Source of the DNA: Vulcanimicrobiota bacterium
GTDB lineage: Bacteria > Vulcanimicrobiota > Vulcanimicrobiia > Vulcanimicrobiales > Vulcanimicrobiaceae
NCBI GenBank assembly: GCA_963723515.1
Contig: CAVRQT010000003.1
Span: 800,001-864,000 of the forward strand
Length of the DNA: 64,000 bases
Direction: 5' to 3'
The position numbers are program-made. Numbering within the stretch: the stretch's first letter is position 1; each line of letters opens with the position of its first letter. This document shows positions 39,001 through 42,000 of this stretch, piece after piece.

Positions 39001-42000
39001 GCGGTGCCCCGCCGCGAGCGCGAGATCACTCGTTGCTTCGTTAGGCGCGGAAACATGACGGCGCTTCATGCCCGTGCGCGACGTGATCCACTCGTCGCTC
39101 GTATCGAGGACCTTCTCGAGATCCTCGTTCGTCAGAATGCCGGCGGGCGCGTAGTGGCCGACGCCGACGATCTTAACGCCGCTGCCGTCCAAGCTGCGCT
39201 AGGTCGCTGACGCCGTATGCTCGTCCTTCGGCTCGATCACTTGACGGCCGTTGTACGTGCCGCAGGCCGGACAGACGAAATGCGGACGTTTTGGCGCATG
39301 ACACTGCGGACACTCCACCGTCGTGACCGGAGTGAGTTTCCAATTGGCGGCTCGCCGGCTGCGCGTCTTCGAACGCGGTGTCTTCCACTTTAAGTTTGCC
39401 ACTTTTCAGACTCCCTGGCGCACGTGCACGCGCCGTCATTCTTGTTTTGCCCACAGTATTGGCAGAGGCCGCTGCACTCGCGGGCTGCACAGCACTGCGA
39501 ACGATGCGGTGCTGTCGACCAGTTGCCTCGTCAAATCCGCGATATCGAGCCGCGATCCGACGAGGACATTGGTTTCGCTCAGCGGCTCGTCCTCGCGCAG
39601 TTCCGTCGGCTTCGAGTCGCTCATCGACCTCGATGTGCATCGGCCGCTTGACGTCTCCTAAGCAACGATCGCAGGCGCCGCAGTGCGACCACATCAACGG
39701 TCCCGGCGACCTCAACCATCCGATGCGCGGCCCGAACGTCGAGTTGGACGCGCGCCGGCTCGGGAAAGCTCCAACCCTCAAACGGTTCAAGCTTCACCAA
39801 CTCATCAACACGCAGCGTGTGATGGCCGCCTGCAAGCAAGCTGCCGATCTCGACCGTATTCGAAGAAGCCATAACATAGAGGAAGGCCCCCGATTTGTGG
39901 GGCCTCCGAAACCCGCCTCATTGTAGAGCCGCCCCCGGCTCTTGTCAAACCGCGTGCGGCGCGTGATTGGCGCGCGTGACCGAGATTTCTGCACTACCCG
40001 CCGTAACTCGAGAGCTGGCAAGCGATGGAGTGGCCTACGCGCCGGAGATTGCCTCTGCGGCACGCCGTCACGGTGTTGATCCAAAACTGTTGGCGGCAGT
40101 GGCTGCTCAAGAGACCGGCGGCCCCGGCGCAAATGCCGGGCACAACATCGTCGGCGACGGCGGACACGGCCACGGGCTGTTCCAAATTGACGATCGCTGG
40201 CATGACTTCGCCAGAACCGCTGCCGCGATGGATCCGGCGCAAAATGCCGACTACGCTTCGGGGATGATTGCCGGCCTCTTGCACTCGTACGGCGGGGACG
40301 TTCACAAGGCGCTCTCCGCATACAATGCCGGCAGTCCGGACGCAACCGGCACGGTCACCGAATGGATGGACGGGGAGCGCTTGGGATACGCGGATTCCGT
40401 CTTACGGCATTGCGCGCAGCTTGGCGAACCGATGCCAGGCGGCGCCGGCGGTTCAAGCGCTACCGCGAACAGCCAGAGCGATCAGGCTCAAGCGAGCATC
40501 GATGGCGGTCATGCAAGAGCTCTCGCAATTAAACGCTCTGCAATCGTTCGAGCAGACCTCTTCGCTCGACGAAAGTCTGTTGCAACCAAGCGTGACTTCT
40601 GCGACGGCGCCGAGCTACACGCAATTCGGCCGGCCTCGATGCGTACGGACACTCGCGCTACGACGTCTCATACGCCGGCCTATTGACCGATGACGACGGT
40701 TCATCGGCGGGAGATTCCTAATGAGCTTCAATCTGTTGAACGGCATCGTTCAGGGTGCCGAATCGTTTTTCGCATCGGGCGGCAATCCGATCGCGGGTGG
40801 TGCAGGGGCTTTAGCCGGCGGGTTAACCTCCGGCGCCAATACTGGAACAACTGTGGGCAACATGGGCAATGGAGCCATCGGCGCCCTCAACGCTGCCAAT
40901 GAAGCCGACACCGTCGCGATGTACGCCGAAAACTTGCGCCATCAGTCGGCCATGCAATGGGAGGCCACGTGGTTCAACGAGATGATGGATGAGAAGTCCG
41001 AACGCATGCGTCAGATGAACGAGTTGCGCGATCTGACGATGGAGCAGCGTAAAGCCGACAATCAAATTACGAAGAAGTTCATTCAATCGATCACTGAATG
41101 ATCACACCGATACAGCCCGGTCGTCAGCGAAGCGCGACCGCCCAGGCATCCGATCGCAATCGGCGATGCCAAACCAGCTCCCGATCAGAATCAAATCGCG
41201 CACGACCAAGCCGCCTTGCTTGCCCAGCAAGCCACGTTTAACTTTGCGGTGCAAGAGCGGGCGGAGCTAATGCGCGAGTTCAACGAGCTGCGGGCGCTTC
41301 AAATGGAGCAGCTCAAACATGACGATGAGATCGTCAAAAAATGGATCGACTTGATCTGAGGCGGAATTAAACCGAGCCGACAAGCTCGCAAAACGTTGCG
41401 AGATCGATGTTGCCGCCCGAGATCACGGTGACGATCGGTCCGTTGGCCTGAACTCTTCCCGAAAGCGCCGCAGCAACCGGTAAAGCGCCCGCCCCTTCCG
41501 CAATGACGCGCGCCTTTTCGGCGACCGTTTTCATCGCACGTTTTGTTTCATCAAGCGTGACCACGACGCAGCCATCGACAACGTCTTTCATCCGTTCCCA
41601 CATTCGCGGGAAGACGCTCTTGCCGCCGGCGCCGTCAACGAAGGTTGCTTGCCAACCCTCAAACGTGGAAGCTTTGCCTCTCGCGAATGACAACGAGCCG
41701 GGCGCTGCGGTCTCAGGCTCGGCGCCATAAACACGGACGTTCGGATGCCGCGCTTTAATCGCCGATGCGATGCCCGTCAGCAAGCCGCCTCCGCCGAGTG
41801 CCGCGACGACGACCTCCACATTCGGCAGATCTTCAGCGATCTCCAAACCGATGCTGCCGTTGCCGGCAATAAAATCGGCATCATCGAACGGATGGACGAA
41901 CGTTCCCTTAACGCCGGGAAACTCGCGCCGCTCGAGCGCTTCCCAGCACGCATCGAACGGGCGCTTTAACGAGCGTTGCGCCGAGCACACGCATGCGTTC

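Follow-up and report, generated by a model that had tools for sequence, protein, structure and literature searches.

A muramidase and two paralogous helical proteins form a candidate envelope-breaching operon in Vulcanimicrobiia

Main

Two paralogous helical proteins, A and B, encoded directly behind a peptidoglycan-degrading enzyme in a Vulcanimicrobiia genome, represent a new protein family built from known kinds of parts. We tentatively favour the view that the operon is a self-contained envelope-breaching module that does not strictly depend on an export gate; its tie to the flagellin-less export system of the same bacteria is partial, not obligate. Soils that are poor, acidic or polar harbour abundant Vulcanimicrobiia, of which one species has been cultured. 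The window analysed is a stretch of 64,000 nucleotides from contig C3 (CAVRQT010000003.1), and positions below count from its first nucleotide unless prefixed with C3. In the openly accessible literature searched on the phylum's flagella and secretion systems, we found no description of the operon or the family.

A three-gene operon in a probably error-rich region

Reading the sequence confirmed the three-gene operon beside rpmF that a first-pass annotation had described: a same-strand, plus-strand trio of enzyme, A and B, divergent from yceD-rpmF-fabH. In f1 and f2, two families of the class, the divergent rpmF/yceD-like pair serves as the operon's conserved anchor. The features of the locus are:

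39199–39872, minus strand: rpmF (39199–39402) and a frameshifted yceD-like gene, named by sequence recognition with no family search
39941–39967, plus strand: promoter-like motif CTWGWC-N14/15-SGKGAW, conserved among relatives and of putative function
39976–40720, plus strand: GH23 goose-type-lysozyme-like muramidase (Pfam SLT, g-type lysozyme matches, homologue motifs)
40721–41101, plus strand: protein A (g02153), 126 amino acids (open reading frame, helix model, relatives)
41098–41359, plus strand: protein B, a paralogue of A (similarity to A, alignment to relatives)

Placed from relatives, the start of the enzyme is GTG 39976, about 16 codons earlier than first called, and comparison with a 90%-identical relative reveals two +1 indels in the enzyme tail, near 40506 and 40630. 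Alignment to a 90%-identical relative likewise puts the start of B at ATG 41098, overlapping the stop of A. B carries one frameshift near 41150; 41098–41356 comprises 259 nt, and the open frame is 41102–41359. The gene caller missed B because of this frameshift in a reading frame whose start overlaps the stop of A. A missed, shorter paralogue had been proposed at C3:841102–841359: the paralogy stands, as the open frame resembles the C-terminal half of A (45%, E 2.9e-7), and the limits need revision, given the true start at 41098 and the frameshift.

In this genome (2.1 Mb, 88% complete), 20 kb of conserved genes contain 4 frameshift sites, a rate exceeded by the three frameshifts in 1.4 kb of the operon (Poisson p 0.003). 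The frameshifts in the enzyme and B are probably errors in a locally error-rich assembly, an explanation that we favour because fabD, yceD and a threonine-dehydratase-like gene close by are likewise broken, but they may also represent real decay.

A helical protein family confined to one class

Protein A is a glycine-rich helical protein of 126 amino acids, as first described (40721–41101). About 45 almost uncharged, Gly/Ala-rich residues with two short helices are followed by one 83-residue helix; our AlphaFold model reproduces the earlier one (helices 3–18, 23–35 and 43–125; pLDDT 67, pTM 0.23). Across 51 sequences, the first 45 residues contain a median of 1 charged residue and 28% Gly, the top 19-residue hydropathy is 1.28, which is lower than that of a typical transmembrane helix, and Lys or Arg is missing from the first 6 residues in all 51. 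A and B have in common a conserved 56-residue C-terminal helix. B is a paralogue of the C-terminal 56 residues of A, in which a variable Pro/Ala-rich N-terminus replaces the hydrophobic segment. Relatives show a hotspot of serine-recombinase element integration at the 3′ end of the A gene.

Of 121 class genomes, 113 have A. A profile of the shared A/B helix, built from alignment A4 (69 rows), matched 126 of 131 Vulcanimicrobiia genomes (96%), with 108/113, 3/3 and 15/15 in the class's three families, and none of 69 genomes from the phylum's other classes. The family had been reported in both sister families, and the same profile recovers it there. The operon had also been called class-wide: for the A/B helix the range is wider than claimed, whereas the three-gene form is not class-wide, because sister family f3 has a single 97-amino-acid copy, divergent from rpmE-prfA, and no enzyme. 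Among 105 fetched f1/f2 loci (29 best matches and the rest from the remaining match lists, genomes without a match not being among them), the enzyme is present in 96 and a B match in 97, so that an SLT gene upstream and a paralogue downstream are indeed usual in relatives.

A profile search of 1.84 billion representatives gave 232 matches; 16 examined among the best 150 of the 232 were all family members. Longer matches among the same best 150 looked like read-through artefacts, and one, P0037, is a candidate enzyme-A fusion. Our tallies include the unpublished genomes G014, G036, G050 and G199, on which alone no conclusion depends; G014 supplies 1 of the 53 rows of alignment A1, on which the Pfam, PHROG and PDB searches with A and its HrpA and HrpB comparisons draw, and 1 of the 6 f3 promoters.

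The enzyme resembles goose-type lysozymes

The enzyme carries an SLT domain (Pfam E 1.3e-9), with the catalytic domain at about 40030–40419. It had been labelled a lytic transglycosylase; the domain is confirmed and the label is not, as goose-type lysozymes are its nearest solved natural relatives (E 1.4e-5, over an alignment spanning only the first 60–85 residues). Among 120 homologues, the motifs QET, GDGG and FQID occur in 120, 115 and 119, respectively, and the enzyme has equivalents of goose lysozyme Glu73, Gly92, Gln95 and Asp97. The cited passages of PMC2976769 state that Asp97 positions the catalytic water in goose lysozyme, and those of PMC12855814 that lytic transglycosylases do not perform hydrolysis. 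Judged from the Glu, Gly-Asp-Gly and Gln-x-Asp motifs that match goose lysozyme residues, 'muramidase' would suit the enzyme at least as well as 'lytic transglycosylase', with the proviso that Asp97 is not diagnostic across all GH23. The enzyme has the catalytic Glu and the Gly/Gln/Asp97 signature of goose-type lysozymes (GH23) and, unlike them, is bacterial, signal-less and equipped with a disordered C-terminal tail.

By hydropathy alone, no signal peptide is visible in the enzyme, A or B, in agreement with what had been noted for the latter two. The best PHROG matches of the enzyme are virion-associated lysins, among them 'internal virion protein with endolysin domain' (E 1e-10). A FlgD-like motif in the enzyme tail was not supported: none of the 45 enzyme rows matched PF03963 at E <= 5, and the same family (FlgD) was absent from 5 genomes at E <= 1. 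Searching the genome with a profile of the tail turned up no further protein that carries it, the best match (E 0.035) being the tail itself.

A shared layout with membrane-piercing proteins

Pfam, PHROG and PDB searches returned nothing significant for A or B. At E <= 0.5, Pfam listed 25 families across 53 A members and 23 across 49 B members, none of them a pilin family; PF09589 (HrpA) had no match in the genome at E <= 10, and the A family profile did not match HrpB. The ESM Atlas scores on which kinship with Hrp pilins had been suggested were reproduced for A (HrpA 0.90, HrpE-like 0.87), with a weak recognition value of 2139, under the tool's mark of 2300. For the f3 orthologue, the nearest named Atlas clusters were instead vesivirus VP2 (0.89) and a cluster with 13% T7_gp14 (0.88). 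HHalign of A against HrpA (the Pantoea plasmid HrpA and 19 relatives, one Erwiniaceae set) gave a probability of 0.1–2.3%. With no Pfam match, this HHalign result and no repetition of HrpA by the f3 orthologue, the suggested kinship is not supported.

What A has in common with Hrp pilins (HrpA, Xanthomonas HrpE) is that it is small, helical and signal-less, with a variable N-terminal and a conserved C-terminal half; the cited passages of PMC6026121 describe the Hrp pilin layout as a variable N-terminal half and a conserved helical C-terminal half. Unlike Hrp pilins, A lies outside a secretion cluster, is retained without an export gate and belongs to a paralogous pair. The f3 orthologue is modelled as a single helix (residues 6–95), and in a test for the helix-turn-helix hairpin of a type III needle (SctF) or inner rod (SctI) the A and f3 monomer models (pLDDT 67–68) each form one long helix. 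Neither SctF nor SctI is among the fold-search matches listed, which may still miss such a fold.

Below the Pfam threshold, a SctB2 translocon family appears in 2 of 53 A members (E 0.004) and T7_gp14 (PF24072) in 1 of 53 (E 0.008). T7 gp14, calicivirus VP2 and type III translocators are barrel-forming, membrane-piercing proteins. A also has an uncharged N-terminal segment and a long helix; in contrast to these proteins, to which it has no significant homology, it is chromosomal, single-locus and class-wide. What the family leads have in common is this layout, not ancestry; as weak leads, those to VP2, gp14 and SctB2 and the virion lysin matches of the enzyme point towards an envelope-breaching module. 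A PDB sequence search with the A profile gave nothing under E 0.5, Foldseek against the PDB with the A model nothing at E <= 0.001, and VIA-align a best Z of 6.7, to generic coiled coils, with no pilin or needle among those listed. That all family leads are sub-threshold, and that the structure searches returned generic coiled coils only, counts against the envelope-breaching reading, as does the modest hydropathy of A.

The Atlas lead to T7 gp14 and the virion endolysin match of the enzyme raise the idea of a domesticated phage ejection or lysis module, a gp14-like channel plus a virion lysin, fixed in the class ancestor. We regard this as very unlikely: A is unmatched among 50,697 phage records at E <= 1, its PHROG matches are scattered and weak, those for B and the f3 protein are nil, and the intact locus has no other phage genes.

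A wall hydrolase with no signal must be carried across the inner membrane. For the envelope-breaching module we hypothesize, by analogy with phage ejection proteins and translocators, that the long helix of A would drive its oligomerization to a barrel or tube with N-termini inserted into a membrane. B, co-translated and free of a membrane segment, would bind A, either to hold it or as a minor subunit, and the muramidase could use or accompany the A channel to the peptidoglycan and cut a local hole. The target wall may be the cell's own, for remodelling, controlled lysis or release of material, or that of a neighbour. Where a flagellum-derived gate is present, it may export A, B and the enzyme, and A would be useful without it. 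Against this reading, f3 and 9 of the 105 f1/f2 loci have no enzyme next to A, so that the enzyme is optional.

A flagellin-less export cluster

The flagellin-less export system that the earlier annotation had listed is borne out as a cluster without any filament gene, located at C3:46–60 kb after rplM-rpsI, about 780 kb from the operon. Its genes, of which those lacking a Pfam row are named by sequence recognition, are:

Front, in order: small ORF, FlgC, FliE, FliF fused to a FliG middle domain, FliH, FliI
Continued: unmatched ORF at the FliK position, one FlgE/F/G-like gene, two FliM/N genes
End: FliP, FliQ, FliR, FlhB, FlhA

An aspartyl-protease-like gene and metF are interleaved, and the cluster has no flagellin or FlgD gene. 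It is near-universal in Vulcanimicrobiia. Of 121 class genomes, 114 have FlhA, which falls into two score classes, and 33 have a flagellin match above the cut-off. A tree of 20 rows groups the divergent FlhA proteins of f1, f2 and f3 in a single long-branched clade (100/100), separate from canonical FlhA, and their link to the copies of other classes is weak (87/79). Those classes have a related cluster with FliJ, an SLT gene and FliK; FliP is present in 66 of their 69 genomes, and flagellin is missing in 20 of 31 tested. The export cluster also has its own SLT gene in one Vulcanimicrobiia relative, G033. A PF18269 search was blank, positive genomes included, and a Tad/T4P ATPase was not found in this 88%-complete genome. 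According to the cited passages of PMC9758169, Vulcanimicrobium alpinum is diderm and has pili, no flagella and no flagellin gene.

The proteins of the operon might be late substrates of this flagellum-derived type III system, in which A would assemble into a translocon or a Hrp-pilus-like filament, B would act as its chaperone or a minor component, and the enzyme would open the peptidoglycan. We consider this somewhat unlikely, although several observations are in its favour. The cluster is without flagellin or FlgD, which leaves its distal substrates unexplained; a wall hydrolase with no signal must leave the cell by some route; A has the layout given for Hrp pilins in the cited passages of PMC6026121; and the range of the A/B family is that of the class-specific FlhA clade. 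However, A has no HrpA or HrpB homology, neither its model nor that of the f3 protein has a needle-type hairpin, and operon and cluster are never physically linked. Moreover, none of the other-class genomes has the A/B family, despite the prevalence of FliP there, in many cases without flagellin, and where the cluster supplies its own SLT gene, as in G033 and other classes, this too argues against a substrate role.

Separate promoters

Upstream of the operon, a TGTCAA anchor is present in 88 of 96 enzyme upstream regions, together with a second conserved block, which resembles sigma-B/F-type −10 boxes; the genome contains a sigma-B/F-type sigma operon. The same layout precedes the single f3 gene in 6/6 loci and is thus common to f1 and f3 despite their different locations. 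The first half of the motif overlaps a sigma-70-like −35 box of the divergent minus-strand yceD-rpmF. Only 2 of 27 strict matches in the genome lie upstream of genes, and motif scans gave no regulon, the operon's own gene falling below the score filter of one scan.

A dedicated promoter, together with the sigma operon, would suit two coiled-coil partners, cytoplasmic or tethered to the membrane, that act as a scaffold or in regulation, for example in stress or dormancy, with the lysozyme as an optional passenger; so would the persistence of A without the enzyme in f3 and f2, and the single long helices. The absence of a regulon, a peptidoglycan hydrolase that is tightly co-transcribed at 96 of 105 loci, and the uncharged N-terminal segment of A, which calls for a membrane-type explanation, make such a scaffold distinctly improbable.

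Export genes have repeated GYAAC elements upstream instead. Scored on the operon matrix, 19 of the 20 regions upstream of export genes do poorly, the remaining one coming from a decayed locus, and the operon motif is absent from intact export loci. These upstream sequences do not support shared regulation of the operon and the export cluster, and the difference in promoters weighs against the type III substrate reading and for a self-contained module. Early and late flagellar genes are normally under different promoters, so the difference lowers, but does not remove, the link to export.

Natural losses of the export cluster

Eleven f1 genomes have neither the divergent FliF nor an intact FliP: G049, G015, G212, G055, G209, G068, G080, G081, G194, G203 and G211 (G205, with the front half of the cluster only, was excluded from the counts). 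The gap is seen at the rpsI locus in 10 of the 11; the G080 contig ends inside the gap, and G211 has no rpsI match, so that its loss may be an assembly gap. The operon is reduced to a broken B remnant in G055, and in G209 A is frameshifted and interrupted and B has two stops. Two frameshifts occur in the operon of G068 and one nonsense codon, in the enzyme, in G212, both assemblies being frameshifted elsewhere too. In G015 the operon is intact, but A has L102P at a near-invariant site. A fully intact operon is found in 5 of the 11 (G049, G080, G081, G203 and G211), a point in favour of the envelope-breaching reading. The truncated B of G194 was rejected as decay, being interrupted by an inserted element.

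Any operon lesion is seen in 5 of 11 export-negative genomes and 10 of 93 export-positive loci (p 0.009, kin not being independent), and full operon decay in 2 of 11 and 0 of 93 (p 0.01); both values overstate the difference, because the 11 genomes represent about five loss lineages. The enrichment of lesions where the export cluster has been lost is an observation against the envelope-breaching reading, as are the nonsense codon of the G212 enzyme and L102P in the A of G015, and the full co-decay in G055 and G209 favours the type III substrate reading. Intact genes in G068, G081 and G194 say little, because the flhA remnants there still look selected (pN/pS 0.16–0.24) and the losses are thus recent. 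For the same reason, pairwise dN/dS among export-negative genomes of genus g4 was dropped as evidence.

The evidence against an obligate link comes from G049, G015 and G212 (completeness 96–100%). All three cluster blocks are gone on continuous contigs with the interleaved housekeeping genes kept, and no FlhA, FliP, FliF or flagellin was found in these genomes. They have the same right-hand breakpoints and a junction hairpin in common; G049 and G212 have further junction DNA in common, 62–72% identical, which has no match to the intact cluster beyond shuffles. This is one old deletion of the whole export cluster, common to the three, and not a recent sweep, as the surrounding coding DNA is 83–86% identical.

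Changes private to these genomes number 22 synonymous and 5 replacement in A (omega 0.068, binomial p 2e-10 against neutrality), 7 and 5 in the B helix (p 0.005) and 22 and 12 in the enzyme domain (p 1e-6). Neutrality expects about 77% replacements, control genes gave 186 synonymous and 117 replacement changes, and singleton counting is crude. A is under strong purifying selection in these three species despite the old loss of the cluster, which argues against the type III substrate reading. An AU test rejects a clade of the three that excludes the export-positive G033 (p < 0.01, distant outgroup), which implies recombination, regain or a misplaced root, and the history at this node is not simple, which also counts against the envelope-breaching reading. 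The proposed link to the export system therefore survives in part: co-decay in G055 and G209 supports it, and an obligate link is not supported, because A is kept under selection in three species that have no export gate.

Implications

Vulcanimicrobiia may also have independently made an injectisome-like device from the flagellar core, with A and B as the tube or pore delivering a goose-type lysozyme against other bacteria; A would survive loss of the gate because its barrel also works alone. This proposal is speculative and, in our view, unlikely. We know of no predation in the class. A predatory lifestyle has been proposed for one family of another class, in the cited passages of PMC9259500. 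As described in the cited passages of PMC12075869, the 'needleless' T3SS* of Myxococcus has a type III core without needle or translocon and lyses cells with separately encoded parts; in contrast, the Vulcanimicrobiia system is flagellum-derived and has kept its rod genes.

The A/B family is a class-defining trait found nowhere else in the phylum sample. If its members are the distal part of the flagellin-less export system, they show a flagellar core re-equipped without flagellin or needle, and if the injectisome-like proposal is true, this would be a second, independent transition from flagellum to delivery machine, with an unrelated filament protein. If the module is independent of the gate, it would provide a new route for a signal-less wall hydrolase across the membrane. 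The natural deletion lineages make either answer testable.

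Surroundings of the operon

Several genes around the operon are broken in the window: fabH, fabD and fabG merge into each other through frameshifts (36483–39192), and both yceD (39403–39872) and a threonine-dehydratase-like gene (41367–42342) are split. These interruptions are probably assembly indels. Two putative tRNA-like genes were recognized by eye:

about 42436–42510, forward strand, Ile-like
about 43700–43800, reverse strand, Ala-like

The full operon also adjoins rpmF in a locus labelled Armatimonadota (L050), a label that probably reflects a difference in naming.

The enzyme tail as a module

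The genus g4 has a fourth gene between the enzyme and A, of 107–143 amino acids and rich in His, Gly and Ser (for example, in loci L020, L028, L097 and L027), the C-terminal end of which is a copy of the C-terminal tail of the enzyme. Two matches to this tail occur in 38 of the 105 fetched f1 and f2 loci, and some loci without the enzyme (L040 and L047) retain a tail-only gene. The tail acts as a module.

Loss and division of the export cluster

The flagellin-less export cluster is missing from the rpsI–secD region of genomes G049, G015, G212, G055, G209, G068, G080, G081, G194 and G203, a repeated loss in about five lineages; the interleaved metF and protease genes are retained. In the family f3 the cluster is divided: its front half remains close to rpsI and its back half adjoins molybdate-transport-like genes and secD (L126 and L217). 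A second SLT gene, different from that of the operon, lies within the cluster 3′ of fliI in G033 and in other classes, and is not found in the cluster of G000, the genome of the window:

L081:11301–12164 (G033), second SLT gene
L134:3505–4206, second SLT gene
L137:11–688, second SLT gene

Across the whole of G000 (88% complete), no match to the T2SS/T4P/Tad ATPase (PF00437) was found, although type IV pili are present in the cultured species (PMC9758169).

In G000, a sigma factor of the sigma-B/F type was recognized at C2:555657–558156, accompanied by genes for anti-sigma and anti-anti-sigma factors and, upstream, by two general-stress-like genes. Elsewhere in G000, identical sigma-factor matches occur at C3:3408 and C4:29307, which suggests that contig C4 duplicates the start of C3.

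Integration into genes A and B

The 3′ end of gene A is an integration hotspot in relatives, in which phage-like elements of 14–22 kb interrupt the gene near its QRKxD codons and displace its remainder together with B. The homologous site in B is likewise hit:

Gene A, 3′ end: G051 (L203), G069 (L204), G107 (L205), G113 (L207)
Gene A, 3′ end, further cases: G078 (L209), G209 (L210), G043 (L120)
Gene B: G194 (L119)

Element termini are alike in repeated cases, and two elements have at one end a serine-recombinase-like gene, recognized by eye. Excision restores interrupted genes in the skin and comK prophages; by analogy, excision of these elements could rebuild the gene that they interrupt.
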